DNA of 64,000 nucleotides from Candidatus Moraniibacteriota bacterium (GCA_049303795.1 JBAQNM010000008.1:18288-82287), one strand, 5' to 3'. Counted from the first letter of the stretch, positions 1,607 through 44,339 are shown. The notes: generated by a model from the letters alone, not told the origin. Made by a program: numbers and translations.

Positions 1607-1754
1607 GTTCGTATTGTAGCATTGAAAAATTAATTATTGTAGTAATTTATTTAAAAAACCACCACCAAAATTAATCTGATAACGGTTAAGGTTTATTTAT
1701 AAAATGTTAAGTTTAGTCAAATACAGAGAAAAATTAATTTACATTTGTGATTTG

Positions 1755-4700
1755 CTAAACTGAGGCAGTTTTTGCTTGCAAAGCAAAATGTTTAGTCAAA
1801 TCATAAAGTAAGCTTACAAAATTTTCTGTAAAATCATTTTCTCCGGAAATAATGTGCGCTATCTCATGAAGCGAGGTACTGGCCAATTCACGCCCATTCT
1901 TCTCTAATAATAATCCTTCGTTAAAAATAACTTTTTCTTGTTTAACTTGACCAAAGAGAGTAGATTCAATAGGAATAACCGCAAGGCTTTGATCTCTTTG
2001 CTCAATTTTTTCAGCATCATTCCATTTTCTTATTTCTTTTTTTGCTTTTTTTATATGATACGGCATTTGATCAGCGCCATATTCATTTTCAATATCATCA
2101 ATAACCCCTGAAAAAACTTTTGCGCTTTCAGCCACCACTTTGCTTAGCATTTTTTTTGTTTCCGCCGGTAGTGGAAGCTCTTCTGCTTCCATTTTATTTA
2201 TAAAACCTTCAACTGTTGGTAACATCGTCGCAAAAATATTATAATTCTCGCTAGAGACATCCAGCAACTTTTTCCTGTCAACATACATCATATTCATTTG
2301 AATATATCTAGCCTTTTCCGCCACTTCAATACTTTGCTGTTTTTCTTGTTCATTATAAAACTGAGTCGGATACCCATATTCATCAAATTCAAAATTAAGA
2401 TCCGTTCGCAATTTTTCTGAAGAATAAACTAAAAAATCCGGCCAAATCTTTTGAGCCACTTCTGCCCAAACAGCTGTCGCGCATTCATCTTTGCCTATGC
2501 TATAACCGATTTTCAAATCTCTAGTAACTTCACCTTTGGCTGCTATTGATTTTCTTAATATCTCCTCAATTATCAAAGGGTTGGTAATATGCGAAATGAT
2601 ATGTCTACTATAATAAGCTAAGCGAGCAGTATCATATGAATTTCGCTCACGAGTAGTCACAATCTCAGGAACATCATATCCAAAAGACATTAGACGCCCT
2701 GATTCTGCATTAGGATTAATTCTTAATCCATTTTCATAGACAGCCCCTGGCTCATCTAAAAGAATTGATATACTACCTATCTTATATTCTCTTTCTGAAT
2801 TGGGTTTGCGTAATTGCCGTACAAAACGAGCTAAACCGCCATTATTATAAGAATCTTTTTTACGAGGATCGATAATCGATACCCATTCAGACCATTGTTT
2901 AATCTCTTTCTCTGATGCCTTTTCTGACATTCTTAATGTAGAAAATGATCCTACTGCAGATGAATTTTTAAGAGCCGAGATATCAAAAGCAACCAACTGC
3001 TTTTCCACTTCCTTTCCATCTAGAATTACTTGTCGAACCTCACTTACTGCCTGCGCCCTCCAGCCTACCTTCTTTCCATCATTTTCAAAAACAGATTGAT
3101 ACTCAAGATCAAGACCGCTGCGCAAGGCTGCTGCTGCAATCATTTTTTGTCCTTCACCATATTTTCCAGCGAATAAAGGACTTTTTTTGCTACTTGCACC
3201 CATAGTACTAATTTCAGAAGGTGCATATCCATCACCATTATCAGAAACTTTCAAGCCAACGATTTTATCACTAACATTCATCTCATCGCTCGTTATCCAA
3301 ATCTTATTCTCATCCCGCTTCACCTCAAGCATCAATGACACACCTCCCAGCCCAACAGAAGCATCGACATGATTTTGAATTATATCTTGAAAAATTCTAA
3401 CAGGATTATCCCACTCATCTTTTCCGTATTCTATAGGTATTGCAGTGGCAAAAACTCCCTCAATAATTTCATTATTTCCCTTTTCAGCGCTACCTTTTGG
3501 AAAATATTGATATGCTTCCAGTTGCTCTTGAATATAATCGAAAGTAGTTTTGTTGTATTCATTTCTAAACAAGACTATTCCTCCTGGATTCACAGCAATT
3601 TTTCTTGGATTATTAGAATAATCATCAAATTTAACTTCATACTCCCCTATTTTCAGAAAATTATTCCCATCATTTATTATATATTCTTTCTTCTTGCCTT
3701 CACCACGAGAAAGCACTGCGCCTTCTGCCATAGTAGCTGCCACAAAAAAACGTCCGTCGGTAAGTTCATATACTGCATTCCCCTTCCATTCAAAAATTTT
3801 ATTTTCTTTTGATAATTTCAATTCCTGCCAATCATTAATCCCTTTATTATAAAAATGCAAACTATTGTCAGAAACAAAAACACGATCCATCAACACTCTT
3901 TTTGCTCTATTTTGATCAAAATAAGCATTGTCTTGAAGTATATGTCTAGCTTCCGCAAAGCTAAGATTGGAGGATAACGTCTTTCTGTACAATTCATACG
4001 CCAACTTCTTTTTATTTGTTCTAGTTTCAATATTATCAGAAAGAGCCTCTAGCAATCTGATCACAACTTCAGTATTTTTTGTATAATTAAATGAACTCGG
4101 AATTGATCTAAGCAATGGAGAATCTTCAGGAATGAGACGTGTAATTAGCGAATCAATAAAGTATTGCGATTTCTTGAGATATTCCACATCACTTACACTA
4201 AATTCTTCATCAAAATAAGCGTCTCTTGAATCGTTTTGATTATCATCATCAAAATCATCATTATAATCATCATAATTATCCTGCTTGTCCATTGCAGTTT
4301 TATCACCATAAGCCGACAAAAGACACAATTCGATTTGGCGTTGTAACAATGCCTGCTCATCATAACCTTCCCCAGGGTCAATTATTTCATAAGGATCAAT
4401 TATAAGATTGTTGCCTTTTATTCGCATAGCTTTTCTTTCGGTCATATAAATATCACCATATTCATCTTCCCCGTTTTCATTAGAATTAAATGACATGGAA
4501 AAATTTTGCAAAGGAATACCGCTAACAGTGATGACGGAATTCAAAGATTGGACAGCAGAGGAAAAAACTTGGCGTATAGCCCGCTCCTTTCCCCCTTCAA
4601 CAAATTCATTCTTTGGCCTATCCATTTCCTTAGAGCTAAACTCCGATCTAATTTCTTTTAATGATACAACCTTATAATTACCAGGTATTCTTTTAGCAAA

Positions 4701-6260
4701 TTCGGAAATACTATATGATGAAACATCGCCGGCTATAATTTCTATTCTATATCTTCCACATTCCTCTGCATAATTAATATATTTACCCCAACCCCTTTCC
4801 TTATCATCATAATCTTTACCGGATAATATTAAAGTAGGAACATTTTCTTCCAATACAAGCTCCGCTATCATTGTTTCATCGATAATTTTTTGGATTCTTT
4901 CTGCTATTATATTTTTTTCATCCTCCTTATTTTTAACATCTCTTGACAAGATGCTTTCAAAATATATTAGCTCAGGTGCACCTCTTTTTCCTCCTTTTGA
5001 TTCATCACCTATAACATCTCGCACAAGTCTTTTTATAAGTTCCGGATTATCATTATTCTCCCAAAAAGATCTTATCCTTGAAATTATATCGTCCTTTATT
5101 TCATTCCGATCTCTTCCTCCAATAATGCTGGAATCTAAAATATTATAAGAATACCATGGATTGCCATAGCCAAATGATTCGGTTGCAAGTTCCACCCTAA
5201 GCCCTTGCACATATTGCACATCGCTTTTGCTGATCATATTTATTCCAGCCAAATTTTTTTCGGTAATAGGCATTGGATAAGCAAATTCTTCCGAATTAAA
5301 TTCTAAGATATTTCTAGAGAGACCATCATACCTTGGATCAATATTTTCTAACATTTTCTGTCGAAAGTCCTTGTTAGCTTTTTGCAATGAAATAATGGTA
5401 GTTGATCCAGTTTCTTCAATTTCATTTTTTTCAATTTCCACACCTTCAGAAACTAGTTTTCCATTTACTAATTTTGCTCTTGCTTGCCATAAGCGTTTCC
5501 GCTCTCCCTCGTTTGATTGAAAAGAATATTGCGAACGCATTTTCATTTGTGCACCATGACGCAAAAGATGAAGCTCGCTCATTTTTGCACCTTCACCAAA
5601 TTTCCCACGTAAATGTTTCTTCCCCGTTTTACTGGATATATATAAAGCTGAAAGTTGCGAATCATACCCCGGACCACGATCAACAATTTTCATTCCATCA
5701 ATTCTATAAATTTTCCTTCCCAGAAATGACTCTTGATATAGAGGCTCATCTCTCAGCGTCTCATATGGGATCCAACCTAATGGCTTATTTGTTTCAGTGT
5801 TGGTTATCTCATAGGACACCCGTGGAATTTGCATAGACGATTCTTTTGCCTGTTCCATAAATAACGCCACATCAAAAACTCCATCCTTCACAATTCCCTC
5901 CTTAAGTGGCAACTCTGCTGATATCTTTTGCAGATGTTTTTCAGAAATAGCTCGAGCTTCTGGAGTCATATCTTTGGCATGATTTGCAAACATATAACTC
6001 ATATAAAGGAAATCGCTAATTTTCTCCATTGCATCATCTCCTTGTTTTTCTAATTGTTCTTCATCAAAAATAAGCGAAGAAATTTTTTTATAATACCTAG
6101 CCGTTTCTGCATCAAGATGGTTCTGCATTAAATCCCTCACTGTCTGAGCAGTGGTCCAAGTTTTTTCTCCATATTCAACATTAGTTTTCGCCTCATGCGA
6201 TATTAGTCTGGCTTGATAAGCGTCTTCATTATTTCCCCGTGATTTCCATTCCATTGACAT
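1755..6260 (-). CDS. Giant (1501 aa) cytoplasmic protein with two GHKL/Hsp90-like ATPase modules and a C-terminal HExxH motif
   Basis: Module 1: LMQNHLDAE (N-box), DRGPGYD (G1), GKFGEGAKM (G2). Module 2: IIQNHVDAS, DNGDGYA, GKYGEGQKM. Acidic low-complexity linker (DDYNDDFDDDNQND); HEIAHII near C-terminus; no signal peptide. Confidence 0.6.
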   Translation of the reverse strand: MSMEWKSRGNNEDAYQARLISHEAKTNVEYGEKTWTTAQTVRDLMQNHLDAETARYYKKISSLIFDEEQLEKQGDDAMEKISDFLYMSYMFANHAKDMTPEARAISEKHLQKISAELPLKEGIVKDGVFDVALFMEQAKESSMQIPRVSYEITNTETNKPLGWIPYETLRDEPLYQESFLGRKIYRIDGMKIVDRGPGYDSQLSALYISSKTGKKHLRGKFGEGAKMSELHLLRHGAQMKMRSQYSFQSNEGERKRLWQARAKLVNGKLVSEGVEIEKNEIEETGSTTIISLQKANKDFRQKMLENIDPRYDGLSRNILEFNSEEFAYPMPITEKNLAGINMISKSDVQYVQGLRVELATESFGYGNPWYSYNILDSSIIGGRDRNEIKDDIISRIRSFWENNDNPELIKRLVRDVIGDESKGGKRGAPELIYFESILSRDVKNKEDEKNIIAERIQKIIDETMIAELVLEENVPTLILSGKDYDDKERGWGKYINYAEECGRYRIEIIAGDVSSYSISEFAKRIPGNYKVVSLKEIRSEFSSKEMDRPKNEFVEGGKERAIRQVFSSAVQSLNSVITVSGIPLQNFSMSFNSNENGEDEYGDIYMTERKAMRIKGNNLIIDPYEIIDPGEGYDEQALLQRQIELCLLSAYGDKTAMDKQDNYDDYNDDFDDDNQNDSRDAYFDEEFSVSDVEYLKKSQYFIDSLITRLIPEDSPLLRSIPSSFNYTKNTEVVIRLLEALSDNIETRTNKKKLAYELYRKTLSSNLSFAEARHILQDNAYFDQNRAKRVLMDRVFVSDNSLHFYNKGINDWQELKLSKENKIFEWKGNAVYELTDGRFFVAATMAEGAVLSRGEGKKKEYIINDGNNFLKIGEYEVKFDDYSNNPRKIAVNPGGIVLFRNEYNKTTFDYIQEQLEAYQYFPKGSAEKGNNEIIEGVFATAIPIEYGKDEWDNPVRIFQDIIQNHVDASVGLGGVSLMLEVKRDENKIWITSDEMNVSDKIVGLKVSDNGDGYAPSEISTMGASSKKSPLFAGKYGEGQKMIAAAALRSGLDLEYQSVFENDGKKVGWRAQAVSEVRQVILDGKEVEKQLVAFDISALKNSSAVGSFSTLRMSEKASEKEIKQWSEWVSIIDPRKKDSYNNGGLARFVRQLRKPNSEREYKIGSISILLDEPGAVYENGLRINPNAESGRLMSFGYDVPEIVTTRERNSYDTARLAYYSRHIISHITNPLIIEEILRKSIAAKGEVTRDLKIGYSIGKDECATAVWAEVAQKIWPDFLVYSSEKLRTDLNFEFDEYGYPTQFYNEQEKQQSIEVAEKARYIQMNMMYVDRKKLLDVSSENYNIFATMLPTVEGFINKMEAEELPLPAETKKMLSKVVAESAKVFSGVIDDIENEYGADQMPYHIKKAKKEIRKWNDAEKIEQRDQSLAVIPIESTLFGQVKQEKVIFNEGLLLEKNGRELASTSLHEIAHIISGENDFTENFVSLLYDLTKHFALQAKTASV

Positions 6261-6442
6261 ATAACAAAAATATCTGCAATTAAGTGTTTATTTATAATAC
6301 CATTTTAAAACTAATTCAAATGCAAGTCAAAAATTAATCCATCATTAAGAAAGCTGTAAATCAATAGTGAGTGCCACTAAAGCAAATAAAAAGAGCCTGC
6401 AAGATTTCCCTTCTTGAACAGGCTTTGTGAAAAAACAATGTT

Positions 6443-7141
6443 TCAGATTATTTTTGATTTAAAAAGAGCGGCCCATATTTTTGGGCCAGAAATAAGATAT
6501 GCCACATCAAATCTTTTATCCCTTGCCTGGCCTATGGCTAGCCCGACTAAGATTCCAGCATCATCAAATACCCCAGCACCGGAGAAGCCTTTTTCAATAG
6601 ACATTTCCACGGCTATGACCTCTGCGTTGTTTGGCAATTTCCAGACGTCTATTATGCGGCCCCTTGCTAATTTATAACTGTTATCTGAAATATGTCTATA
6701 AGTAAACACGGGTTTTCCGATTAGCAGGTTTTCATCCATTTCCATGCGAGTATCTACGCTTTTATCACTCATTTCGACTGATAAAAACGCCAAGTCCTCT
6801 GAACTATCGACGTAAATTACATCCGCCTTGATTTTTTTATGAGTAATAGAGTCACCATCCAACGGCATCACCGTAATAAACGAAGCGTCTTGAATGATAT
6901 GTTTCGCTGTTGCAAGGATACATCTGCCATTTTTCTTCATCAATATTACTGCCATGCCACGCTCAACGCGTAGAACACTGCCCCTTCTTGATTCTGCGAT
7001 GACAAAATAGGACATTTTTTTAGCATACGCGATTGCTTTTTCATCCGAATAATACGGACTTAGAGTCGACATTGGCACACTTGCGCATGATGCATTCGAG
7101 AAACACACTACGACCAAAAAAATACTCGCGATTATTCTCAT
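6443..7141 (-). CDS. Secreted trypsin-like (S1/chymotrypsin-fold) serine protease
   Basis: Signal peptide MRIIASIFLVVVCFSNASCA after RBS GGGAGGAAG; His-region LATAKHI, GFSGAGVFDDAGILVGLAIG (catalytic Ser region typical of S1/Deg-type proteases). Start trimmed from the 302-aa track ORF to the SD-preceded Met. Confidence 0.5.
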   Translation of the reverse strand: MRIIASIFLVVVCFSNASCASVPMSTLSPYYSDEKAIAYAKKMSYFVIAESRRGSVLRVERGMAVILMKKNGRCILATAKHIIQDASFITVMPLDGDSITHKKIKADVIYVDSSEDLAFLSVEMSDKSVDTRMEMDENLLIGKPVFTYRHISDNSYKLARGRIIDVWKLPNNAEVIAVEMSIEKGFSGAGVFDDAGILVGLAIGQARDKRFDVAYLISGPKIWAALFKSKII

Positions 7142-7356: not shown

Positions 7357-7968
7357 TTACAATCTTGAAATTTCCTCGAAAGCCTCGTCCATTTTTTTCA
7401 GATAATGACTCACATTATCCGAATCATAAAAACTCAGCCCATGTTTTTTTAGCGTATCCTCGTGAGGCGACAATCCAATATCACACACCACTAGTCCTCT
7501 TTCAGGCTCCACTAAAATATTTATTGAATTAAAAATTGATTGATCTGAAGGATTGCCGACAATATCCGGATAAAGTTTCCGCTCTTTAACACACATAAAA
7601 AAATCATCAATGAGTTTTTTCAAGAAAGCTAAATCATGCTTATTCTTTTTTAGAAATTCAACAAATTTTAATTTTCCTATTTGCTTGACTGATGGCGCAT
7701 TAATTTTTTTCTGTTTTATGCAAATATACACCTCTCCTTCATAGATACATTCGGATAAAAAAGACTCGGCTATTTTTTCTGGAAAATCCCTACATATTTC
7801 TTGAAGCTTCAAATAATCCTTTTTAGCTCGCTCAAGACTGTTACGTTTATTTATTTTAAAAACATAACCATCTTTTTCAAAAACAAGACTACTTATCCCC
7901 TTTTCACAATCCATCAAATAAAAACCATTCTCTTTGGATATTTCTAATTTTTTATCCATAAATTTCAT
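7357..7968 (-). CDS. Hypothetical protein (possibly kinase-like fold)
   Basis: 203-aa ORF, 17-nt overlap with the upstream gene; no confident family. Confidence 0.35.
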   Translation of the reverse strand: MKFMDKKLEISKENGFYLMDCEKGISSLVFEKDGYVFKINKRNSLERAKKDYLKLQEICRDFPEKIAESFLSECIYEGEVYICIKQKKINAPSVKQIGKLKFVEFLKKNKHDLAFLKKLIDDFFMCVKERKLYPDIVGNPSDQSIFNSINILVEPERGLVVCDIGLSPHEDTLKKHGLSFYDSDNVSHYLKKMDEAFEEISRL

Positions 7969-8731
7969 CCGATTTGATAACTCCCATTTCTTTTAATAAT
8001 ACCTTCATATTATGAACAGAATTTGGAGAAATTTTTTTAATATTATTTTTCAATTCTTTAATCTTATGAAAAATTTCACTATTCGGATTTTCAATGAGCT
8101 TCTTAAATTCATCGGGATAAACATTAGCACTACCGGCCACCAATCCTGCTGTTTTTTTATTTGAGGAATTTATAAATTCAGATTCGCTTCCTTGAAAGAA
8201 TAAAAAATTATCCGAAGAAATTTCTATCAATTGGTTGTTATAATCACTATCCGAAGAACTATCTTTTATACCAATTATTTTAGGATTGGCACTATATTTT
8301 TTAATGATATCCAGATCTAAATTCATACCGCCTTGTATTGCGGGATTGTTATATAGAAGAATAGGAAGATTTGAATGGTTCAGTGCCAATTCTATTTTTT
8401 CAGCTACCTCGCCTTGACCAACCATCGGCGTCAAAACAACCGCAAATGATTTCATTTTATTAGCAACTCCAATTAGTTCCTCTGTTTCTTCCACGGTATC
8501 TGCTGAAACACCAATTAAAATTGATACCTTATCAACAAAAGGAATGCACGCGCTGATAATCATTTTCTTTTCTTCAAGAGATAGTTTCAAGAATTCTCCG
8601 GTTGTTCCTAGGACAAAAATTGCATCAACCCTTCTTTCAATCAAAAAATTCATCAGCTTTTCAAAACTTTCAATATCAAATTGTGAATTTTTTCTAGGGG
8701 TTATAATTGGAACAATCAATCCTTTAAACAT
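7952..8731 (-). CDS. Dihydrodipicolinate synthase (DapA) family protein, short form
   Basis: N-terminal GLIVPIITPRKNSQFDIESFEKLMNFLIERRVDAIFVLGTTGEF matches the DapA/NAL aldolase family opening; 259 aa is shorter than canonical DapA. Confidence 0.55.
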   Translation of the reverse strand: MFKGLIVPIITPRKNSQFDIESFEKLMNFLIERRVDAIFVLGTTGEFLKLSLEEKKMIISACIPFVDKVSILIGVSADTVEETEELIGVANKMKSFAVVLTPMVGQGEVAEKIELALNHSNLPILLYNNPAIQGGMNLDLDIIKKYSANPKIIGIKDSSSDSDYNNQLIEISSDNFLFFQGSESEFINSSNKKTAGLVAGSANVYPDEFKKLIENPNSEIFHKIKELKNNIKKISPNSVHNMKVLLKEMGVIKSDEIYG

Positions 8732-10993: not shown

Positions 10994-11530
10994 CTAACAC
11001 CGATCAATCGCATGGGTGAAAGTTTTTTTCTTCTTGTTTTCCAGTTTCGGAACAACAAAAAATTCATCATCCTGCGCGTAGGTAATACCTTCAATCACGG
11101 GACGCTCGGCAAGCAAAGCTTGGCGATCAACCTCTTCGATGATTCGGATAAAATCATCATTGCCCGTTTCTTTGAGCAAGGCGATCACTTCTTCATCGGT
11201 CAGTTTTGTCTCAACACGCGGAGGAGTTAAACGCCAGCCAAAAATTCCGGAATTAAGCGCAATCGTCCGCAACTCTTTTGTCAATTGAGCTTTGCGGGGA
11301 TTGGCGAAAGCGAATAAGGAATTAATTTTGGCATCCCTCTCAACCACCAGCGGCCGTAGCTTCTTCGTAGCCGCCAATTTCAATTCGGCGATCCTCTCTT
11401 TCAATTCTTTTTCAATTGCATTGATCTTGTTCTGGCTATCACCTAATTGACCCAAAACAACATCAGCCTCTGTAATCGAATGCGGAACAACAGTTTTGGA
11501 CTTCTTAATACGAGTGATTGTCTTTACCAT
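10994..11530 (-). CDS. Bacteriophage Mu Gam-like host-nuclease inhibitor family protein
   Basis: Coiled-coil N-terminus followed by conserved region (KINAIEKELKERIAELKLAATKKLRPLVVERDAKINSLFAFANP) resembling Gam family; downstream hairpin terminator at about 10925-10960. Confidence 0.5.
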   Translation of the reverse strand: MVKTITRIKKSKTVVPHSITEADVVLGQLGDSQNKINAIEKELKERIAELKLAATKKLRPLVVERDAKINSLFAFANPRKAQLTKELRTIALNSGIFGWRLTPPRVETKLTDEEVIALLKETGNDDFIRIIEEVDRQALLAERPVIEGITYAQDDEFFVVPKLENKKKKTFTHAIDRC

Positions 11531-22061: not shown

Positions 22062-22359
22062 AATTACACAGTCAATAATAATGAATATCCTCGGTAAAGA
22101 AAAATTACATGCTTTCAAGCAAAGGCACGCTGATGTCCGTTCACAGGTAGATGCCTGGGAGGCTGAAGTGGCTATAGCAAAGTGGTGTACGCCACAAGAC
22201 ATAAAACAGCGATATGCCAGCGCCAGTTTTTTGGCAGATAACATAGTAATATTTAACTTGAAAGGGGTAAGGTATAGATTAAAAACAAAGGTTAATTATC
22301 CATATGAAGCAGTACTAATAATGAACGCTGGAACACATAATGAATATACGCGTTGGTAA
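22054..22359 (+). CDS. higB: Type II toxin HigB-family (RelE/ParE superfamily) mRNA interferase
   Basis: C-terminal KGVRYRLKTKVNYPYEAVLIMNAGTHNEY resembles the HigB core (…IAFIDFRFKKIFVKHIVTHAEYDK); 7-nt overlap with the downstream HTH gene. Confidence 0.65.
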   Translation: MGTITQSIIMNILGKEKLHAFKQRHADVRSQVDAWEAEVAIAKWCTPQDIKQRYASASFLADNIVIFNLKGVRYRLKTKVNYPYEAVLIMNAGTHNEYTRW

Positions 22360-23582
22360 TAACAAGCAAAACTATGACAACTAAAATTAAGGTTATCAAA
22401 ACTGAAGAGGATTACCAAGGGGCTCTCAAGATGGTTGAAGAGCTAATGGACAAAAATCCCGACACCAATTCAGAAGACGGCGAAAAGCTGAGTCTTCTAA
22501 TAACATTGGTTAAGGATTACGAGTCTAAATCTATCCCTGAATCTTTACCTGATCCAATTGATGCGATCCTATTCAGGATGGAACAGCAGAATCTAAAACC
22601 ATCAGATTTAGTACCTTATATTGGAAGCAGAAGCAAAGTTTCTGAAATCCTTTCTCGCAAACGCCCACTAACCCTTTCAATGATAAGATCTCTTGAGGCT
22701 AACTTAGGTATTCCAGCTAAAGTCCTTCTGAAAGAATCAGATGAATTTAGAAATGCCGAGGATATTACATGGAATAGGTTTCCATTAAATGAAATGAAGA
22801 AACGTGGATATTTCAATGATTTACCAAAAATAACAGATATAAAGGTACTGATGGAGAATTTTTTTCAACCCATTGGATCTCCCATGCAGCTTGCTGGAAT
22901 GCTTCGTAAAACAAATTACAGATCAACTAGGCCAATGGATAAGCATGCGCTGATTGCTTGGTCCGCAATGATTGTAAAAAAAGCCAACGAAATAAAATCA
23001 GTTAAAAAATTTCAAAAAGACACTGTCAACTTGGACTTTATGCAAAAGCTGGCGAAACTAAGTGCTGAGGAAAATGGTCCTCTTCTTTCTCGCGATTTTC
23101 TTGAGAAACATGGAATCATACTAATAATTGAGCCACATTTTCCACAAACTTATCTTGATGGTGCAGCATTAATGCTTCATGGAAAAAATCCCATTATAGG
23201 GTTAACTCTTAGATATGATCGCATTGATAATTTCTGGTTTAATTTAATGCATGAATTGGCACATATAGCGCTACATTACGATGATAATTCAAACTTTTTT
23301 TATGACGATTTAGAAAATTCAGATCTATCAAATACAAAAGAGAATGATGCAGACAAATTAGCATGCGAAGCCCTTGTTCCTGAAAACAAATGGATCAATA
23401 GTTCTGCAAGACTAATCTCCATGCCTATAGCCGCTGAAAGTTTAGCAAAAGAATTGGGAATACACATAGCCATTGTGGCTGGGAAAATGAGACGCGGGGG
23501 TGATAAATATATTTATTTAAATAACATAATCAATCAGGCTAAAATCAGGACATATTTCCCTGAAATATCCTGGAAAAAATAA
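22353..23582 (+). CDS. HigA-like XRE HTH antitoxin domain fused to ImmA/IrrE-family (DUF955) zinc metallopeptidase domain
   Basis: HTH region SDLVPYIGSRSKVSEILSRKRPLTLSMIRSLEANLGIPAKVLL; C-terminal HEXXH NLMHELAHIALHY. Confidence 0.65.
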   Translation: MVITSKTMTTKIKVIKTEEDYQGALKMVEELMDKNPDTNSEDGEKLSLLITLVKDYESKSIPESLPDPIDAILFRMEQQNLKPSDLVPYIGSRSKVSEILSRKRPLTLSMIRSLEANLGIPAKVLLKESDEFRNAEDITWNRFPLNEMKKRGYFNDLPKITDIKVLMENFFQPIGSPMQLAGMLRKTNYRSTRPMDKHALIAWSAMIVKKANEIKSVKKFQKDTVNLDFMQKLAKLSAEENGPLLSRDFLEKHGIILIIEPHFPQTYLDGAALMLHGKNPIIGLTLRYDRIDNFWFNLMHELAHIALHYDDNSNFFYDDLENSDLSNTKENDADKLACEALVPENKWINSSARLISMPIAAESLAKELGIHIAIVAGKMRRGGDKYIYLNNIINQAKIRTYFPEISWKK

Positions 23583-28573: not shown

Positions 28574-30367
28574 CTAATCATTCAATTTGTCAGCTAATTT
28601 ATTCTGTTCCCTAAATAGTGTAGCATCTCGATCAATCAATCCCTGCTCTTCAGCACTAAGCCATTGATTTGTTTCCATTTTGGATAATATCATTCTTGCA
28701 TTTGAAATCCTTTCTGAAATTATAGAGTTTATCCGATTAATATCCTTTTTATGTTCCTTGTAATAAATATCGTATTTCTTCAAATCCTCCCAGCCTGGTT
28801 TTATTTTCTTCAGATCAGAAACAGTTGATCTCCAGGAATCAATATCTGACTGCTTGTAATTCGGTGGCGAATAACCTGCCAAATGTTGAATAATTACTTG
28901 AGTAGGGCAACCATTCATTTCTCCTCGCACAACCGCAACTCCAATATCCTGGTACTCCTTACTTAAAATAAATTCTTTGGATTCCGGAAATTCAAACTGA
29001 TTTTCTATAAGCTCTTCGGAGCTATAATATCCCTGTGTTGGTAATTCTCCATAAACAATATTTGAGTATCCAGCATCACGCATGGCTTTTTTCATACCAT
29101 AACCACTCTTGTCGGCATCAAAAGAAAAATCGGCATATTTCAATATGACATCACCTCGAAGCTTGGCTGATTGTTCGAGTCTTGATTGATATTTTAATGG
29201 TGGCAAGCCTACTTCTTTACGTTTTTCATTTACTAAATTTGTATATTTATTTGTATCTAAAACAACAAGAGAGCTGTTATCAAGGTCATGAGTAGTATCG
29301 CGCCAATTTTTATCAAGCTTACCATGCTGTTTTTCCAAGGGAATGACATTGAGTATATCGTCATAATCAATAACACCTAATTTTGATCTAGAATCTTGGC
29401 TAGCCTTTCTATTATCTCCCATTACAAATATTTTTCCTTCCGGGATTGTTATTGGTTGGCATTCTGAAAAGAATTGACTGCCAAGCGTAGATCTTGGTTC
29501 GGCTATGTAAGGCTCCTTTTGGGGTATATTGTTTAGATAAAAAATTCTATCCCTGATTTCAATAGTATCACCTGGTAAGGCCACTACTCGCTTAATGTAG
29601 CTAGTGTCTTCTTTAGATAGTTCTTTGACCATATCATTTGAAAAAACCACAATATCTCCGCGCTTAATTTCATATGAAAAGAATTTCTGTCCCATAAATT
29701 CAATGCCTGACGGATACGTTATTGTTCTTGTGGGTAAAGTTATTTTTTCAGAATTTTCATCATCTCCCTTCGGAAATGTTGGATACATTGATCCACCCGA
29801 AACCATTATTGGAGAAATCATTTGACCTGTTCTGGTGCCAACAAACCAAGCTGTTGCAATATAGCCACCAATCCACATTGGCAAAATGATGATAAAAGAT
29901 ACAAAAAAAGCTCCTGATTTAAGAGCAAAAGTTTTAAATTTGAATTCTTTCCAATATTGTCTAATACCAAGAGATTTCAACTTTCTAAATAATTCAATTG
30001 GCTGCAAGATATTCCATAAAAGAAATATTGGTAAAATTGTTAGAATAAGAGCAGCTTTTATACATGCAGATATTGGATTATTTTTTGTAATATTTTTCCC
30101 TTGCAATTTATAAGTAATTGCGATTAGTCCAACACTAAAAGAAATTACGCCCATCACAACAGCAAGGACAAGCATCAAAATGTGTGTATTTGAAATTTGA
30201 GTGGCTGTTTTGTTTTCAATCAAAATAAAAATACCAACAAATGCCAGTACACAAAGAAACCAAAATGAAAAAGAAGTTAGAACCAGAGGCGAAAGTTTAT
30301 CTTTTAATTTCGTTATTTTCATAATCAATCTCAATTCCATAATCGTACCCCTCCATGGCTGGAACAT
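28574..30367 (-). CDS. Membrane-anchored signal peptidase I (S26) domain fused to a C-terminal CAP (SCP/PR-1-like) domain
   Basis: Several N-terminal TM helices; SPase boxes VSGGSMYPTFPKGD, YIKRVVALPGDTIE, VMGDNRKASQDSR; C-terminal CAP-like region (GYSNIVYGEL..., HLAGYS). Confidence 0.55.
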   Translation of the reverse strand: MFQPWRGTIMELRLIMKITKLKDKLSPLVLTSFSFWFLCVLAFVGIFILIENKTATQISNTHILMLVLAVVMGVISFSVGLIAITYKLQGKNITKNNPISACIKAALILTILPIFLLWNILQPIELFRKLKSLGIRQYWKEFKFKTFALKSGAFFVSFIIILPMWIGGYIATAWFVGTRTGQMISPIMVSGGSMYPTFPKGDDENSEKITLPTRTITYPSGIEFMGQKFFSYEIKRGDIVVFSNDMVKELSKEDTSYIKRVVALPGDTIEIRDRIFYLNNIPQKEPYIAEPRSTLGSQFFSECQPITIPEGKIFVMGDNRKASQDSRSKLGVIDYDDILNVIPLEKQHGKLDKNWRDTTHDLDNSSLVVLDTNKYTNLVNEKRKEVGLPPLKYQSRLEQSAKLRGDVILKYADFSFDADKSGYGMKKAMRDAGYSNIVYGELPTQGYYSSEELIENQFEFPESKEFILSKEYQDIGVAVVRGEMNGCPTQVIIQHLAGYSPPNYKQSDIDSWRSTVSDLKKIKPGWEDLKKYDIYYKEHKKDINRINSIISERISNARMILSKMETNQWLSAEEQGLIDRDATLFREQNKLADKLND

Positions 30368-32041: not shown

Positions 32042-32209
32042 ATGACTACATTTTCTAAAAAAGAAATAGAAGAATTAGTGAGATTGCATCGCGAGGAATT
32101 GGGATTAGATGTCTCCGAAGAAGAAGCTTGCCAATATGCTACACAGCTAGTGGAACTTTTTCGTGTTGCTTATCGGGACATTCCAGACACTAAATCACCG
32201 CCTTAAAAA
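32042..32209 (+). CDS. Small acidic protein (55 aa) upstream of the primase-like gene
   Basis: ATG 32042 to TAA 32207-32209; MTTFSKKEIEELVRLHREELGLDVSEEEACQYATQLVELFRVAYRDIPDTKSPP. Confidence 0.3.
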
Positions 32210-32210
32210 T

Positions 32211-32777
32211 ATGGAATATAAAGCACCAAAATTTACTGACCGGGAATTGCTTGAGCTTTTCCCTGAAGCCAGGAAAATAATCCCAATAAAAATCAAAGAA
32301 GTTGAGGCAGACATATGTGAAAAGAAAGCTGCTATTGAAGATCAACTAAGGAGGCTTTATTCCATGAAGACGGATAGCTTCTCTGAGTGGTTCGGGGAGG
32401 AACTAATAAGAAAACTCGTTATGCCGGAACTCACCGCTATGGAGAAAAATCTTTTCCGACTGAAGCGCTTCCAGCAGCTGATGCATCCCAAATCAAAAAA
32501 ATCCAATTGGTTCAAGTTTGAAGAAAAGATCGAGGTTGCTAGGAATTATTCGATTGAAGCAGTGGCCCGGGACAAGCTGGAGCTTAAGCAAGCAGGCAAA
32601 AATCTTATTTCACTCTGTCCATTCCATGATGAAAAGACTCCTAGCTTCTATATCTACCCCGAAACAAACTCATTTCATTGTTTTGGGTGCCAGGAACACG
32701 GAGATGTAATTAAATTAACTATGGCTCTCTATTGTCTGGAGTTCAAAGAGGCAGTTGAGTTGCTACAAAACAAATGA
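32211..32777 (+). CDS. DNA primase-type zinc-finger (CHC2) protein
   Basis: CPFHDEKTPSFYIYPETNSFHCFGCQEHGDVIKL is a zf-CHC2 (DnaG-like) motif; start taken at ATG 32211, in frame with track ORF 32163. Confidence 0.5.
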   Translation: MEYKAPKFTDRELLELFPEARKIIPIKIKEVEADICEKKAAIEDQLRRLYSMKTDSFSEWFGEELIRKLVMPELTAMEKNLFRLKRFQQLMHPKSKKSNWFKFEEKIEVARNYSIEAVARDKLELKQAGKNLISLCPFHDEKTPSFYIYPETNSFHCFGCQEHGDVIKLTMALYCLEFKEAVELLQNK

Positions 32778-34102
32778 GTAAAACTACACAATTAGAAGAC
32801 ATCAAAAACGATGTAAAAAACAATACTCCAGCCAAAAACGAGAGATTCGTTAAACTAACCCCAAGAACAAAAATAGGAATTGAGGAGTGGAAAAACATCC
32901 TAAGTGACAACTTTCCCGATCTGGCTTTTGCCGCTGAAGCAGGACTCAGTGTGATTGGACAGTTGCTCATAGATGACGTAAAAAATCCCTTCGCGCTCGT
33001 CTATGTTGACGTTCCATCGTCCGGAAAAACAGTAACATTAAACTTTTTCTCTACCATCAAAGAATTAGTCTTTACGGCAGATGACTTCACTCCGGCATCA
33101 TTCGTTTCACATGCGGCCAACAGAAAGAAAGAAGATTTAGAAAAAATTGATATGCTTCCACAAATACGATACAAAACGCTCTTAGTCAGAGATATGGCGC
33201 CAATTTTTGCCAAAAGAGATGAAGATGTGCAAGAAATGCTCGGGATCTTGATAAGAGTCTTAGATGGTGAAGGATATGAAAAAAGTGGTGGAGTGCATGG
33301 AAAGCGCGGTTATATTGGTGATTATTTGTTTATGCTTCTATCGGCCTCTACTCCAATAAGACCAAGGATCTGGAAAGTGATGGGAAATTTGGGATCGCGG
33401 CTATTTTTCTTCAATATCGATGGCGCAGAAAAAGATGAGCTGGCACTTGCTAACCAGTTAAAAACATCATGCAGAGATAAAGAGATTATCTGCCGTGAAG
33501 CAACAGAGGAATTCATAAAAACACTTTGGAGTAAGTATCCGCAAGGAATCATATGGGACAAGGAAAAAGATGATACGAATCTTACTCAAATCATTGCTCG
33601 CCTAGCTATGGTATTAGCAAAACTTAGAAGTCCCATAAATGTATGGGAGGAAGCAGCTGGGCAGAAAAAATATAACCACACACAAATAATAGTTGAGATG
33701 CCGGATCGATTGAACCAGCTCCTGTATAACGTTACGCGCGGACATGCACTTATTTGTGGACGAAAAAACATAACCCGAGATGATTTAGTGATGACCATAC
33801 GAGTAGCATTGGACTCAGCTTTGCCAAATCGATCCAAAATTTTTAAGCACTTGATTTATAATAATGGCCAGTTAGGCACAAACGAAGTTATGCAAATTCT
33901 TAAATGTTCTAGGCCCACCGCTCTGAAGATAATGCAGGAAATGACTCTTCTTGAATTAGTAGGTACAGATGACGACTTAGAAGACGAATCACATTTTATT
34001 GGCAAACAAGAACAAAACATAATTCTCAAGGATAAATACTCCTGGTTCATTAGCGATGAGTGTAAAAAGTTAATCAGTCACGGTGTCAGAAATGGTTCAT
34101 AA
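32774..34102 (+). CDS. Replication-associated protein with P-loop-like motif
   Basis: VDVPSSGKTVTLNFF Walker-A-like; translationally coupled to the primase zinc-finger gene (overlap ATGA). Confidence 0.4.
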   Translation: MSKTTQLEDIKNDVKNNTPAKNERFVKLTPRTKIGIEEWKNILSDNFPDLAFAAEAGLSVIGQLLIDDVKNPFALVYVDVPSSGKTVTLNFFSTIKELVFTADDFTPASFVSHAANRKKEDLEKIDMLPQIRYKTLLVRDMAPIFAKRDEDVQEMLGILIRVLDGEGYEKSGGVHGKRGYIGDYLFMLLSASTPIRPRIWKVMGNLGSRLFFFNIDGAEKDELALANQLKTSCRDKEIICREATEEFIKTLWSKYPQGIIWDKEKDDTNLTQIIARLAMVLAKLRSPINVWEEAAGQKKYNHTQIIVEMPDRLNQLLYNVTRGHALICGRKNITRDDLVMTIRVALDSALPNRSKIFKHLIYNNGQLGTNEVMQILKCSRPTALKIMQEMTLLELVGTDDDLEDESHFIGKQEQNIILKDKYSWFISDECKKLISHGVRNGS

Positions 34103-34640
34103 AGCAAATCTGACGCTGTGCCAGAAGAATATGGCAAAAAAAGAAAAAAGGAGCAAGAGAACTATTATGGCCATTAAGGAATCTCAAGAAGACGAGATGG
34201 CAGAAGCAATAATGCTCGCAGAATTTGACAGAAAAATGACACCCAAATTCAAAGCTTGGTCAGCTCTGTATATGGACAAGAGCAACAAAGAATATTGGGG
34301 AAATGCCACCAGGTGCGCCCTGGAAACATACAACACAACAAATATTGCGAGCGCAGCACGAATAGGTCACGACAACACAAGAAAACTCAAGATTTTCATA
34401 GGTACAATTTTGGAATATGAAGGAATGGGAATGAGTGAAATGGTAAAGATTGGCGCGGCCAAGATGCTTAAGGGAACATTCCAGGACTGGAAAGAATTGA
34501 TGATTATGGCGGGATATTATGATCCAAATTACAAACCAGACGTGGAAATAAACATAGGAGCTATCTACAATATCGCCAACTTGAGTGCCGATATTGCAAA
34601 GGCTAGAAGAGATCGAGGGCTCGACAAAATTAGGCACTAG
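34083..34640 (+). CDS. Hypothetical protein
   Basis: 185-aa ORF. Confidence 0.3.
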   Translation: MSEMVHKANLTLCQKNMAKKEKRSKRTIMAIKESQEDEMAEAIMLAEFDRKMTPKFKAWSALYMDKSNKEYWGNATRCALETYNTTNIASAARIGHDNTRKLKIFIGTILEYEGMGMSEMVKIGAAKMLKGTFQDWKELMIMAGYYDPNYKPDVEINIGAIYNIANLSADIAKARRDRGLDKIRH

Positions 34641-34694
34641 CTATTATTCGTGTTTCGGGTATTGTGTTGTTACAAAACCCAAACAAAAAAAGAA

Positions 34695-36311
34695 ATGAAT
34701 CAAGAAATTGCTAAACCAATTAAATATTTCCTCTATGCAAGAAAGTCCTCTGAAAGCGAGGATCGCCAAATGCAATCCATTGAGGCTCAGATAGGAGAAC
34801 TTACCCAAATAGCCGAACAGCAAAACATAGAAGTTGTGCGGGTATTTTCTGAATCCAAATCGGCCAAGGCTCCGGGTCGAGAAGTATTTGAGGACATGAT
34901 AAAAAGAATCAAGAAAGGCGAAGCTAATGGAATAGTCTGCTGGAAATTAAATCGCCTAGCTAGAAATCCAGTGGACGGCGGAGAAATAAGCTGGATGCTT
35001 CAGCAAGGAATAATCCAGCATGTCCTAACCTTTGGAAGAAACTACTATCCGAGCGACAATGTCTTGATGATGGCGGTAGAGCTCGGCATGGCCAACCAAT
35101 TCATTCGCGACTTGAGTGTAGACACCAAGCGAGGGCTTCGCCTTAAAGCTGAGAAAGGCTGGTGTCCCAATATGAGCGTCTTGGGCTATACCTACAATCC
35201 AAATAAAATCAAAGGAGAAAAAGAAATAATAAATGATCCAGCAAGATTTGATTTAGTGAAGAAAATGTGGAAGACGGTTATCTCGAGAAAATATACCGTC
35301 AATGAAACTTACAACCTAGCGATAAAAGAATGGGGTCTCACAAACAGAAAAGGTGGCAAAGTCTCGATCGCTTCATGGTATGCCATGCTTCATAACCCCT
35401 TCTACTATGGCTGGTTTGAATTTCCTAAAGGCAGTGGCAATTGGATTCAAGGTAAGCACGAACCCATGATAACTAGAACAGAATTTGATAAGATTCAAGC
35501 GATGCTTGGCCTGAGGGGAAATACGCGTCCTAAAAACTACGACTTTGCCTATACTGGAATAATGCGCTGTAAAATTTGCGGGGCTATGATTACGGCTGAG
35601 AATAAAACTAAAAAGAATAAAAATGGAAATGTTCATCATTACATTTTCTACCATTGCTCAAAAAGGAGAGATCCAAACTGCCCCGGAAGAAAATCTGTGG
35701 AAGAGAAAAAACTAGAAGAACAAATTCAACAGCTCATACAAACAATCGACATCCCGCCCGGCTTCAAGGAATTCGCAATCCAGCACCTCAAAAAGAATTA
35801 TGCCGAAGAACTGGGAGCTGGTAAGCGGATCCACGACAGCCAAACTCGAGCCCTTGAGGCCAGTAAAAATAAACTTAGTAGACTTGTAGACATGCGGCTC
35901 AATAACGAGCTGTCAGAGGCAGAATTCAGCTTCAAGAAGCAAGAATTACGCAAGGAACAAGAGCTCTTGGACAATGCCCTGAGGAATGAAGAAGCTCCAA
36001 AGGAAACTTGGATGGAAAAACTGGAAAAGACCATGGATGTTGCCGAGGATATTTGCGAAAGGTTCAAAAATGGAGATTGGCGCGGCAAAAAACAACTGGT
36101 TGCGAGCCTTGGCCAAGACCTCCATATGAAAGACAGCCAGTTTGTTATCGGAGAAGAAAACCCAATTCTCCGAATAAAGAAGATCGCAAAGACTTCTAGG
36201 GCAATTTACGAAAAAGCAACGGACCCGCCGGATAGTAAGGAGATGGAACTTGCCTACGCCAGCTCTACGAAACTTCAAGGACAACTAAAGGAATTGGTCA
36301 GAGAAAAATAA
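34695..36311 (+). CDS. Large serine recombinase (integrase)
   Basis: Catalytic YARKSS; resolvase domain, recombinase domain, Cys-rich zinc ribbon (CKICGAMI...CSKRRDPNCPG), coiled-coil C-terminus; start taken at MNQEIAK within track ORF 34650. Confidence 0.85.
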   Translation: MNQEIAKPIKYFLYARKSSESEDRQMQSIEAQIGELTQIAEQQNIEVVRVFSESKSAKAPGREVFEDMIKRIKKGEANGIVCWKLNRLARNPVDGGEISWMLQQGIIQHVLTFGRNYYPSDNVLMMAVELGMANQFIRDLSVDTKRGLRLKAEKGWCPNMSVLGYTYNPNKIKGEKEIINDPARFDLVKKMWKTVISRKYTVNETYNLAIKEWGLTNRKGGKVSIASWYAMLHNPFYYGWFEFPKGSGNWIQGKHEPMITRTEFDKIQAMLGLRGNTRPKNYDFAYTGIMRCKICGAMITAENKTKKNKNGNVHHYIFYHCSKRRDPNCPGRKSVEEKKLEEQIQQLIQTIDIPPGFKEFAIQHLKKNYAEELGAGKRIHDSQTRALEASKNKLSRLVDMRLNNELSEAEFSFKKQELRKEQELLDNALRNEEAPKETWMEKLEKTMDVAEDICERFKNGDWRGKKQLVASLGQDLHMKDSQFVIGEENPILRIKKIAKTSRAIYEKATDPPDSKEMELAYASSTKLQGQLKELVREK

Positions 36312-36495
36312 CTCCACGCGAAAAATGCGAGGAGTTATTTTTTTATTCTATCAGATTTCCAAATTTAGGTTCGAACCTCTTCGAAATCCCATTATTACAG
36401 GGTTAAATGCGTTTTTTGGTCATTATCAGTCCTGTTCTCGTCAGGCCTATTTTTTGATAGGTTCGAACCTCCTGAATTTGGCTTATATAACGCAC

Positions 36496-36522
36496 AAACC
36501 ACCTCTTTTGAAGGTGGTTTCT
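36496..36522. terminator. Hairpin
   Basis: aaaccacctcttttgaaggtggttt, 9-bp stem. Confidence 0.4.
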
Positions 36523-36530
36523 GCGCAATG

Positions 36531-36603
36531 CTCCGCGACCAGGACTCGAACCTGGAACAAATTGATTAACAGTCAATTGCTCTACCATTGAGCTATCGCG
36601 GAA
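36531..36603 (-). tRNA. tRNA-Asn (GTT)
   Basis: Reverse complement TTCCGCGATAGCTCAATGGTAGAGCAATTGACTGTTAATCAATTTGTTCCAGGTTCGAGTCCTGGTCGCGGAG folds as a cloverleaf; anticodon loop CTGTTAA. Confidence 0.85.
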
Positions 36604-41754: not shown

Positions 41755-42909
41755 ATGATCTCAGGAATGCCCCAAAACGAACTGAAGAAGATGGAAAGAT
41801 CAGCAGAAAGCGTAACGCCAGGCCATCCGGACAAAATCTGTGATAGAATGGCAGACATGTTCGTTGATGAATGCATGAAAGCAAATCTCGACGTCGCCCC
41901 CAATAAAATGGTCGGGCGTATGGCGGCTGAGGTTACCGGAGGACATGGAGAAGTCTATGTCACCGGTGAATGCCGGATTGCAGGAGCGGAAACACAGGAA
42001 GATCTCCAGACTTTTATCGGCGGATGTGAAAAAAATATCAAAGCCATTTACAAAGAGATCACTGGATGCCAGTTGAACCACGTTCGCCTGAATATGGTTC
42101 CTCAGTCGGCAGATATTGCCGCTGGTGTTGACATTGGCGGCGCAGGAGATCAAGGAGTAATGATCGGGTATGCAACAAATGAAACGCCCGAAATGTTACC
42201 CAGACCTTTTCTGCTGGCCAGAAAAATCACCAAGGCACTCTATGCAGAAGCCATGAATAACCCTGATACCTGGATGCAAACTGACGGAAAGTCAGTGGTA
42301 ATCATGCGCAATGGAACAGTCGCTTCAGTTGTCGTGGCCATTCAACACAAAAATGGCAACGATAAGGAAGCAATGACGGAAGATTTACTGAAAAGGATCG
42401 TCATGCCCGTTCTCGGATACGCACCAACTCGTTTTGTCGTCAATGGCGCAGGAATATTCTGCATCGGCGGGTTCGAGGCCGACGCCGGCACAACCGGACG
42501 TAAATTGATTATTGATAACTACGGTCCCGAACTGCAAATCGGCGGCGGAGCATATTCCGGAAAAGATGCAACCAAGGTTGATCGGTCAGCAGCATACATG
42601 GCTCGTTATATTGCCAAAAATGCTGTAGCCCATGGGATCGGCGGATCGGAAAAAGTTACCGTTCAGTTTGCCTACGCCATCGGAATTGAACAGCCCGAGG
42701 CTATCATTGCAATCAACCAGAAAGGCGTCGACATCTCCGGATGGGTACGACACAACTTCGATCTCAGTCCCAGAGGCATCATTGAACGCCTGAATCTCTG
42801 GCGTCCGATATATCAGGAAGTCTGTACCGGCGGCCATTATGGCCTGAACCATGAGGCGTCAGACAAATTGGACGTCTGGACATGGGAAGATATTGACCCT
42901 TCACTTTAA
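41755..42909 (+). CDS. metK: S-adenosylmethionine synthetase
   Basis: GHPDKICD, GAGDQGVMIGYA, TGRKLIIDNYG, GGGAYSGKDATKVDRSAAY MetK signatures; GC-rich relative to surroundings. Confidence 0.8.
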   Translation: MISGMPQNELKKMERSAESVTPGHPDKICDRMADMFVDECMKANLDVAPNKMVGRMAAEVTGGHGEVYVTGECRIAGAETQEDLQTFIGGCEKNIKAIYKEITGCQLNHVRLNMVPQSADIAAGVDIGGAGDQGVMIGYATNETPEMLPRPFLLARKITKALYAEAMNNPDTWMQTDGKSVVIMRNGTVASVVVAIQHKNGNDKEAMTEDLLKRIVMPVLGYAPTRFVVNGAGIFCIGGFEADAGTTGRKLIIDNYGPELQIGGGAYSGKDATKVDRSAAYMARYIAKNAVAHGIGGSEKVTVQFAYAIGIEQPEAIIAINQKGVDISGWVRHNFDLSPRGIIERLNLWRPIYQEVCTGGHYGLNHEASDKLDVWTWEDIDPSL

Positions 42910-42921
42910 AGGAGAATCACC

Positions 42922-44241: not shown

Positions 44242-44339
44242 GAAAAGCTGGACCAAAATTAAAATCAATAAAAAAACAATCTTAAAGAGGGGGTGCGATC
44301 TTTGTATCGCTCCCCCTTCATTATTAAAAGGAGGTGCTC

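Follow-up and report, generated by a model that had tools for sequence, protein, structure and literature searches.

A 64,000 nucleotide (nt) stretch of DNA from a Candidatus Moraniibacteriota bacterium (GCA_049303795.1 JBAQNM010000008.1:18288-82287; termed the window) carries a gene for a giant protein of 1501 amino acids (aa) in which two GHKL-type ATPase heads are followed by a zincin-like tail. We find that this protein represents a tandem version of a 'GHKL + zincin' unit of ~440-490 aa. The unit spans large phages, Bacillota, Actinobacteria and DPANN archaea, and Patescibacteria carry two-headed forms of 970-1940 aa. The initial annotation, which was made from the sequence alone, had recorded two Bergerat motif sets and a C-terminal HExxH in the protein, and had missed the duplication and the kinship with phage and DPANN proteins.

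The coding sequence of the two-headed GHKL-zincin protein (1755..6260; like all features of this gene given below, on the minus strand) is complete, stop codon included, as judged from the list of open reading frames (ORFs) and the translation. Its product is a real, conserved, cytoplasmic protein of an ultra-small bacterium of the Patescibacteria, or Candidate Phyla Radiation (CPR). No transmembrane segment was found, and the 19-residue Kyte-Doolittle mean peaks at 1.08. Because the protein lacks a hydrophobic segment, it is predicted to be soluble and cytoplasmic, in agreement with the initial annotation. In a database search we recovered 66 relatives, which are mostly 1430-1570 aa long with query coverage of 97-100%. 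All are labelled 'hypothetical', and those with organism names come mostly from Patescibacteria metagenome-assembled genomes (MAGs). Since more than 60 homologues share the length of 1430-1570 aa, the ORF is not a fusion artefact; full-length homologues of matching size rule out that reading. Scans of the window protein with Pfam and NCBIfam gave only a sub-threshold HATPase_c match, and the NCBIfam models gave no match, consistent with the earlier remark that no housekeeping family fits.

Re-translation from the coordinates recovered both Bergerat motif sets and the HExxH. The first head (aa ~25-295; 5376..6188) is defined by invariant motif residues, by an AlphaFold2 (AF2) model and by hhalign comparison with the second. 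It contains motif I, DLMQNHLDA (aa 43-51, nt 6108-6134), and the G1/G2 boxes DRGPGYD...GKFGEGAKM (aa 194-227, nt 5580-5681), and in the AF2 model a helical insertion of ~90 aa (aa 55-145, nt 5826-6098) lies between motif I and the first strands. The second head (aa 931-1115; 2916..3470) is defined by invariant residues, HATPase_c matches and Foldseek, and contains DIIQNHVDA (aa 959-967, nt 3360-3386) and DNGDGYA...GKYGEGQKM (aa 1007-1040, nt 3141-3242). The gap between the end of the first head at ~aa 295 and the start of the second at ~aa 935 is ~640 aa, close to the 'about 600 aa' originally given.

Conservation of these elements was assessed in an alignment of 35 full-length homologues with 28-58% identity to the window protein. 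Residues N47, D194/G196/G198 and G219/G222/E223/G224/K226 of the first head, and N963, D1007/G1009/G1011 and G1032-G1037 of the second, are invariant. The Mg-coordinating N47 and N963 of the N-box lie in predicted helices, in register with ELISNASDA of E. coli HtpG. The pairing of G1 and G2 boxes expected of a GHKL protein is likewise invariant in both heads (D194-G196-G198 with G219-G222-G224; D1007-G1009-G1011 with G1032-G1035-G1037). At the position of the general-base Glu, four residues before the Asn, both heads instead carry an invariant Asp (D43 and D959), which is a conservative substitution. The giant belongs to the GHKL superfamily, in which it is atypical at one residue.

Each head is followed by a transducer-like region that contains an invariant basic motif (GRDRN, aa 382-386; TRERN, aa 1203-1207). 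The first such region (aa 296-421; 4998..5375) has an invariant IDPR and GRDRNE (nt 5100-5117), with D308, R310, R383, D384 and R385 invariant in the homologues, and matches its equivalent in module 2 by hhalign. The second (aa 1116-1245; 2526..2915) has IIDPR and TTRERN (nt 2637-2657), with R1204 and R1206 invariant. The N-terminal half aligns with the C-terminal half in BLASTP with an E-value of 7e-11, and hhalign matches aa 146-421 to aa 974-1243 with a probability of 98.9% (E 3e-17), the motif-I segments aligning separately. Judged from these alignments, the two halves of the giant are a true internal duplication, and conservation among the homologues indicates strict constraint on the two ATP-binding sites and on the metal-binding motif. 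The duplication and the invariance together argue that the motifs are not coincidental.

AF2 models were built with the family alignment as two separate halves, residues 1-650 and 651-1501, and both are confident, with a predicted local distance difference test (pLDDT) score of 85.3 and 83.8, respectively. Both heads show the same order of elements: a motif-I helix, three strands leading to DxGxG, a low-confidence lid, a post-G2 helix and four long strands. The ATP lids, which are the segments between the G1 and G2 boxes, have low pLDDT (aa 205-214 in the first head). In Foldseek the C-terminal half best matches TRAP1 (4j0b; E 4e-7, probability 1.0, ~700 aligned columns), and also the 43K ATPase fragment of GyrB (3zkb; E 7e-5) and many Hsp90 N-domains (probability ~1.0). 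Full-length TRAP1 and the 43K fragment give better E-values than Hsp90 N-domains alone. The better scores of these multi-domain targets suggest that the region after the second head resembles a middle/transducer domain.

The fold check proposed for both heads therefore succeeded for the C-terminal half, with significant matches to Hsp90/TRAP1 and GyrB, but the N-terminal half alone gave weak matches, and for this reason the first head is assigned mainly through its homology to the second. The window protein itself scores weakly on Pfam HATPase_c (14.6 bits, aa 954-1022), and a homologue (P0008) passes Pfam HATPase_c_3 (31.7 bits against a threshold of 25). The fold matches, this homologue and the internal duplication bear out the description of a tandem GHKL ATPase of the Hsp90/TopoVI-B/MORC type.

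A minimal zincin-like domain forms the C-terminus of the giant (aa 1421-1501; 1758..2000). The AF2 model predicts three short strands, the HExxH helix and a final helix over residues ~1426-1501, and the helix carries HEIAHIISGEND (aa 1465-1476, nt 1833-1868), with VIFNEGLLL upstream (nt 1905-1931). N1447, E1448, H1465, E1466, H1469, D1476 and F1481 are invariant in the 35 homologues, and H1465, E1466, H1469 and D1476 are kept in every subtype that has a tail. The only match of the C-terminal profile among PDB sequences is the SprT domain of Spartan (6mdw; E 0.03), which is also the top, marginal match of the whole-family profile (E 0.08). The FNExLL and HExxH motifs are in register (IRLSEPLL...LHEMIH in Spartan; VxFNExLL...LHExxH in the family). 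The Pfam SprT-like model scores ~12-13 bits on the window protein and on its phage relatives, below the cut-off of 25.6.

Invariance, register with Spartan and the C-termini of phage and DPANN relatives indicate that the HExxH is a conserved zincin-like element rather than a chance pentapeptide. Its suggested identity as a metallopeptidase would fit the beta-beta-beta-helix layout and the FNExLL...HExxH...D motif, but the similarity to SprT is weak. The tail is probably a minimal SprT-like zincin, HExxH(x6)D. As predicted, its small beta-sheet followed by a putative active-site helix resembles the minimal zincins SprT, Spartan and Wss1. Unlike SprT/Spartan, the giant has as its putative third ligand an Asp at +7 rather than a distal His, and no zinc-ribbon or DNA-binding module was detected in it.

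The kinship of the giant was traced with phage and archaeal proteins. PHROG 6077, a family of unknown function, matches the window protein over aa 188-422 (E 2.6e-11) and a 970-aa relative with an E-value of 1.5e-33. Among phage genomes, tblastn identified a 446-aa protein of Moorella phage MTATph1 (CDS0173, WPA89660.1; L044:4863-6203) and the 437-aa gp137 of the SPO1-like Exiguobacterium phage vB_EalM-132 (AYP68649.1; L045:4827-6140). Both have one GHKL head and an NRDR-type motif, which reads NRDRN in the protein of the Moorella phage and NRDRS in that of the Exiguobacterium phage, and both carry HETLHKYSGARDCTREF or HETIHRVTGANDNTEAF at the C-terminus. Genes for a helicase, SSB, dUTPase, ligase, exonuclease and UvrD-like protein neighbour these one-headed genes. 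By hhalign, the giant family and the Moorella phage protein are related in both the ATPase module (95.5%, E 1.4e-8) and the tail (80.7%, E 1.3e-5). When the model of the C-terminal half was searched against BFVD, the best match was a 437-aa phage protein (E 1.4e-12, 602 aligned columns, template modelling (TM) score 0.53 on the target). Next came further uncharacterised phage proteins, and after these T4-type rIIA (E 8e-7 to 4e-4).

Searching with the phage protein gave 143 relatives, none with an annotation beyond 'hypothetical' or 'ATP-binding protein'. Many carry Pfam PF25856 (MPN635_N) as a precomputed annotation. MPN635 is known only as a non-essential gene of M. pneumoniae (PMC9825166). 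The named relatives are ~440-490 aa long in Bacillota and Anaerolineae and ~700 aa in Micromonosporaceae, and a profile search added ~490-aa Nanoarchaeota proteins to the one-headed set. A hidden Markov model (HMM) of the minimal family, built from 72 proteins of 425-500 aa, matches the giant with a full-sequence E-value of 1.4e-32. Its domains fall on aa 189-462 (hmm 50-278), aa 994-1357 (hmm 42-359) and aa 1432-1497 (hmm 375-440). Module 1 is thus matched in part, whereas module 2 and the tail are collinear with hmm 42-440, so that the giant consists of a partial unit, a spacer and a complete unit. In a 32-sequence set of the minimal family the G2 box, NRDR and the H-E-H-D residues are invariant. 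The family resemblance extends over the ATPase, the transducer and the collinear HExxH(x6-7)D..F tail, and by these sequence comparisons the giant is a member of an uncharacterised GHKL + zincin family of the PHROG 6077/MPN635_N type.

Relatives of several sizes connect the one-headed and two-headed forms. These were surveyed in a species-level scan with one genome per species (37 loci), and contexts were compared across 43 related loci. Two heads with an HExxH occur in proteins of ~1500 aa (the window type), ~1360 aa and ~1940 aa from several Patescibacteria classes (L016-L020 for 1360-1940 aa). Two heads with HEKTH occur in ~970-aa proteins of Paceibacterota, Saccharibacteria, Kerfeldbacteria and Nomurabacteria (L025-L035), and one head with HExxH in ~490-aa proteins of Nanoarchaeota/DPANN-type MAGs (L038-L043). 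Relatives of ~1060 aa in Melainabacteria (L036-L037) lack the HExxH. The C-terminal tails of all types align with each other. ATPase and tail are therefore evolutionarily coupled, from one-headed forms in phages and DPANN to two-headed forms with a single tail in Patescibacteria. Searches of the literature found no description of a GHKL-zincin fusion or of a tandem CPR form.

The one-headed proteins of PHROG 6077/PF25856 have the same GHKL motifs, an NRDRN-type motif and an HExxH(x6)D..F tail, and are collinear with module 2 and the tail of the giant. Compared with them, the giant adds an N-terminal ATPase module that has a 90-aa insertion and no tail of its own, as well as a spacer of ~500 aa with two domains, and it is chromosomal in Patescibacteria. 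The spacer comprises an alpha/beta region, a disordered acidic tether, a helical bundle and a beta-rich domain. The alpha/beta region after module 1 (aa 422-650; 4311..4997) is modelled confidently by AF2. The poly-acidic, low-complexity linker (aa 651-690; 4191..4310), which the initial annotation had rightly pointed out, has a net charge of -12, is predicted to be disordered (pLDDT <50) and is confined to a closer subclade of relatives. The helical bundle and beta-rich domain (aa 691-930; 3471..4190) are defined by AF2 secondary structure, as is a helical connector (aa 1246-1420; 2001..2525) between module 2 and the tail; in collinear alignment, this connector falls on positions ~280-375 of the HMM of the minimal family. 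To look for a second, degenerate zincin behind module 1, aa 422-700 were aligned with aa 1244-1501 in hhalign, and no homology was detectable. These comparisons show a three-part build: a partial unit of head and transducer, the ~500-aa spacer, and a complete unit that ends in the HExxH(x6)D domain.

GHKL ATPases such as Hsp90, GyrB, MutL, MORC and Topo VI-B act as dimers, and binding of ATP clamps their N-terminal heads together. In the giant, the two heads of one chain would, by this analogy, most likely pair as a pseudo-heterodimer. ATP-driven closure of the heads would then grip a macromolecular client and either bring it to the single C-terminal zinc protease or uncover that protease. In that case a GHKL clamp, and not an AAA+ ring, would drive the giant as an ATP-gated protease, and its one-headed phage and DPANN relatives would do likewise as homodimers. 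We propose this clamp-protease model tentatively as the most likely mechanism and judge its chances to be slightly short of even. Proteins bound or crosslinked to DNA are one candidate class of client, because the tail is SprT/Spartan-like and the phage relatives lie in DNA replication and repair modules. Folded proteins are another, because the best structural match is Hsp90/TRAP1.

Several observations weigh against these assignments and against the model. The GHKL matches of the N-terminal half in Foldseek are not significant (Topo VI-B, E 6.7e-3; MORC4, E 0.033; GRP94), and profiles of the inter-module domains (aa 420-650 and 690-935) found no meaningful match among PDB sequences. One match of an inter-module profile, to Octarellin, was dismissed because this is a designed beta-alpha repeat. 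The Asp in place of the general-base Glu in both heads implies that hydrolysis may be slow, or that ATP may serve only as a switch. The tail resembles SprT/Spartan only marginally (E 0.03-0.15), the putative third metal ligand D1476 is assigned from invariance only, and the Melainabacteria proteins imply that protease activity is not obligatory across the superfamily. Pairing of the heads is proposed for domains that sit in separately modelled halves. Finally, the giant carries a net negative charge and lacks an obviously basic patch for contacts with DNA, which gives no support for direct DNA binding.

A role in genetic conflict is the main alternative; it concerns function and is compatible with the clamp-protease mechanism. 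The giant would be either a single-gene anti-phage system, in which the ATPase senses the invader and the zincin is the effector, or a phage takeover or counter-defence factor, similar to T4 rIIA, that has been domesticated. An exhaustive HMMER search of 1.84 billion representatives with aa 930-1501 yielded only 217 clusters at E<=1e-3, of which 76 reached E<=1e-30, and the family is therefore rare and patchy rather than a universal CPR gene. This distribution would suit a conflict role, as would the lack of synteny even between 57%-identical orthologues and the occurrence of relatives in large phages and on mobile-element-like contigs (PHROG 6077).

The rIIA proteins found among the BFVD neighbours of the C-terminal half point in the same direction. 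T4-type rIIA, likewise an uncharacterised, stand-alone GHKL protein of large phages, combines an N-terminal GHKL domain with a variable C-terminal domain. We know of no report of an HExxH tail in rIIA, and tblastn against phage records returned no rIIA-annotated gene; rIIA acts with rIIB, whereas the giant family has no conserved partner gene. A further point that can be counted for a conflict role is a Phage Mu Gam-like gene in the window, ~5 kb from the giant (10994-11530, minus strand; Pfam Phage_Mu_Gam, E 1.6e-24), which is flanked by two ORFs without a family match and by a TrmB-type regulator. In addition, rIIA-centred GHKL systems are listed as poorly understood phage counter-defence systems in a comparative analysis (PMC7824862).

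However, no model of PADLOC-DB v2 matches the giant or its relatives, and no defence, toxin or mobile genes recur beside the 43 loci. The defence-island setting first suggested was not borne out, as bacterial neighbours differ from locus to locus and are mostly housekeeping genes. A scan of IMG/VR with the family patterns found no viral contig with the 1500-aa type. Moreover, several Patescibacteria classes have kept full-length orthologues (28-58% identity) whose catalytic residues are invariant, a pattern that looks like long-term retention and not rapid turnover. We regard a conflict role as rather unlikely.

The protein might instead be purely a chaperone or DNA clamp like Hsp90 or MORC, with the HExxH tail serving a structural or metal-binding purpose without peptidase activity. 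The best matches among solved structures are indeed chaperones and DNA-manipulating GHKL ATPases, the Melainabacteria relatives lack the HExxH, and the tail is very small (~80 aa). Yet the H, E, H and D of HExxH(x6)D, the catalytic Glu included, show no variation among 35/35 giants or in the minimal-family set of 32 sequences, and the FNExLL strand motif before the helix matches the region of the substrate-binding edge strand of Spartan. These observations make a pure clamp improbable.

Resemblance to particular clamps is a matter of architecture. The giant shares with Hsp90 proteins (HtpG, TRAP1, Grp94) the Bergerat head, a putative middle/transducer region and a flexible ATP lid, and part of the family also has an Hsp90-like charged linker after a head. 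The invariant R1204/R1206 that follow the second head may be compared with the catalytic Arg of the Hsp90 middle domain; full-length TRAP1 aligns better than N-domains alone. Unlike Hsp90, the giant has an Asp for the catalytic Glu, two heads per chain and a zincin tail, and no C-terminal dimerisation domain was identified in it. Neither NCBIfam HtpG nor Pfam HSP90 matches the protein, and hhalign with E. coli HtpG covers motifs I-II only (E 0.005, probability 6.7%).

The initial annotation had also likened the architecture to sacsin and MORC. Several GHKL-type heads per polypeptide are indeed a sacsin-like trait, and MORC proteins use a GHKL head and transducer as an ATP-driven clamp. However, Pfam and NCBIfam models of the sacsin and MORC types do not match the giant, and the Foldseek match to MORC4 is insignificant. 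The CW, coiled-coil, DnaJ and HEPN modules of those proteins are absent, and the duplication is internal to the giant's own family and not shared with sacsin. Membership of either family was accordingly discarded.

A divergent B-subunit-like enzyme of a type IIB topoisomerase, or a MutL-like DNA enzyme, is very improbable. The top Foldseek matches of the N-terminal half are to Topo VI-B, and the only match of the GHKL-2 profile among PDB sequences is a weak one to MutL (E 0.16), but neither is significant, and the significant matches go to Hsp90/TRAP1. Furthermore, Toprim, Spo11 and the C-terminal endonuclease domain of MutL are all missing from the Pfam and NCBIfam results, and the gene has no conserved partner. 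Identity of the giant with sacsin, MORC, Hsp90/HtpG, MutL or Topo VI-B was rejected in each case, no sequence test supporting membership.

The gene upstream of the giant (6443..7141, minus strand) encodes a secreted DegQ/HtrA-like S1 serine protease of 232 aa without a PDZ domain. As first described, it has a Shine-Dalgarno sequence (GGGAGG, 6-7 nt before the ATG), a hydrophobic, signal-like N-terminus (MRIIASIFLVVVCFSNASCA) and a trypsin fold, but it precedes the giant gene rather than following it. The protease passes Pfam Trypsin_2 (42.4 bits against a threshold of 27.6; E 1.6e-10) and aligns with DegQ (6z05; E 4e-5) with the His/Asp/Ser triad in register. It also matches the protease part of PADLOC 'RT-Protease_XI' (E 3e-9) and PHROG 9683 'protease' (E 1.2e-12), both of which are probably explained by the generic S1 fold alone. 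Protease gene and giant gene are co-oriented, with 182 bp between the stop codon of the former and the start of the latter. Within this spacer, ~40 nt upstream of the giant ATG, lies a promoter-like site, TTGACT-17-TAAAAT (6302..6330), a consensus match of a kind that is not enriched relative to shuffled sequence. A terminator-like hairpin with a T-run (1657..1687), found by a consensus scan only, lies just 3' of the giant stop codon.

Co-occurrence of the protease with the giant, which had been raised as a check, was not observed. The protease, a DapA-like gene, RsgA and adjacent ORFs were compared by tblastn with the 4-7 kb flanks of the 43 related loci, and none had a match at E<=1e-3. All-versus-all clustering of flanking ORFs gave no neighbour cluster in more than three bacterial loci, and at five homologous loci that lie on long contigs the neighbours are different throughout and mostly housekeeping genes. 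Comparison of the neighbours of phage and actinobacterial one-headed versions likewise revealed no homology, and hence no small partner gene common to both. A two-gene module with the adjacent secreted protease, hinted at originally and favoured by the proximity and shared orientation of the genes, is scarcely credible given the absence of the protease from the flanks of all 43 loci, the lack of recurrent neighbours, the promoter-like site in the spacer and the fact that one product is secreted and the other cytoplasmic. An operon with the protease was rejected on the first two of these grounds. The neighbouring protease is functionally unlinked, its proximity a coincidental lead that can be removed, and the giant is a stand-alone gene with no operon context.

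Synteny among flanking ORFs was seen only among the DPANN loci, which share, among other genes, an upstream NPPF-motif methyltransferase-like gene. Elsewhere in the window, the DapA-like gene (7952-8731, minus strand) is a short DapA/DHDPS-family ORF of 259 aa that overlaps the next ORF (7357-7968) by 17 nt. Its NCBIfam dapA score (124.7 bits, cut-off 206) indicates that it may be a divergent aldolase rather than a true DapA. A large serine recombinase with Resolvase, Recombinase and Zn_ribbon_recom domains (34650-36311) adjoins a tRNA gene (36531-36602, minus strand), and the region 32163-36602, which has a raised GC content of 0.40-0.415 and a strong positive AT skew, may be an integrated element. 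A methionine-related cluster (41755-46004; GC 0.44-0.47 against a background of ~0.35) encodes MetK, a Cys/Met pyridoxal phosphate-dependent enzyme and methionyl-tRNA synthetase. The window also encodes a 1136-aa RND transporter of the AcrB/AcrD/AcrF family (52351-55761, plus strand; E 1.3e-180) in what is apparently a Patescibacteria genome, a 409-aa protein with a weak IrrE/Peptidase_M78 domain (22353-23582, plus strand) and an unusually long 597-aa protein with a signal peptidase S26 domain (28574-30367, minus strand).

To our knowledge, all well-studied ATP-dependent proteases (Lon, FtsH, Clp, HslUV and the proteasome) are built on AAA+ motors. If the clamp-protease model is correct, the GHKL-zincin fusion would represent a different way of coupling ATP to proteolysis. 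A broader proposal, and a doubtful one, is that in this family large phages, DPANN and CPR share a novel class of energy-dependent protease, in which a GHKL clamp controls a built-in zinc peptidase, the CPR forms are duplicated single-chain pseudo-dimers and the clients are perhaps DNA-bound. Should the clients be DNA-bound, the family would act as a Spartan/Wss1-like remover of DNA-protein crosslinks or DNA-bound proteins for organisms that perhaps lack the usual ones. The two-headed single chain offers a natural asymmetric GHKL 'dimer' in which to study the division of labour between ATP sites of the Hsp90, MORC and GyrB types, and the ~440-aa phage form, present in phages of the cultured hosts Exiguobacterium and Moorella, provides a tractable experimental entry. 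The family connects CPR bacteria, DPANN archaea and large phages, three groups that count as biological 'dark matter'.

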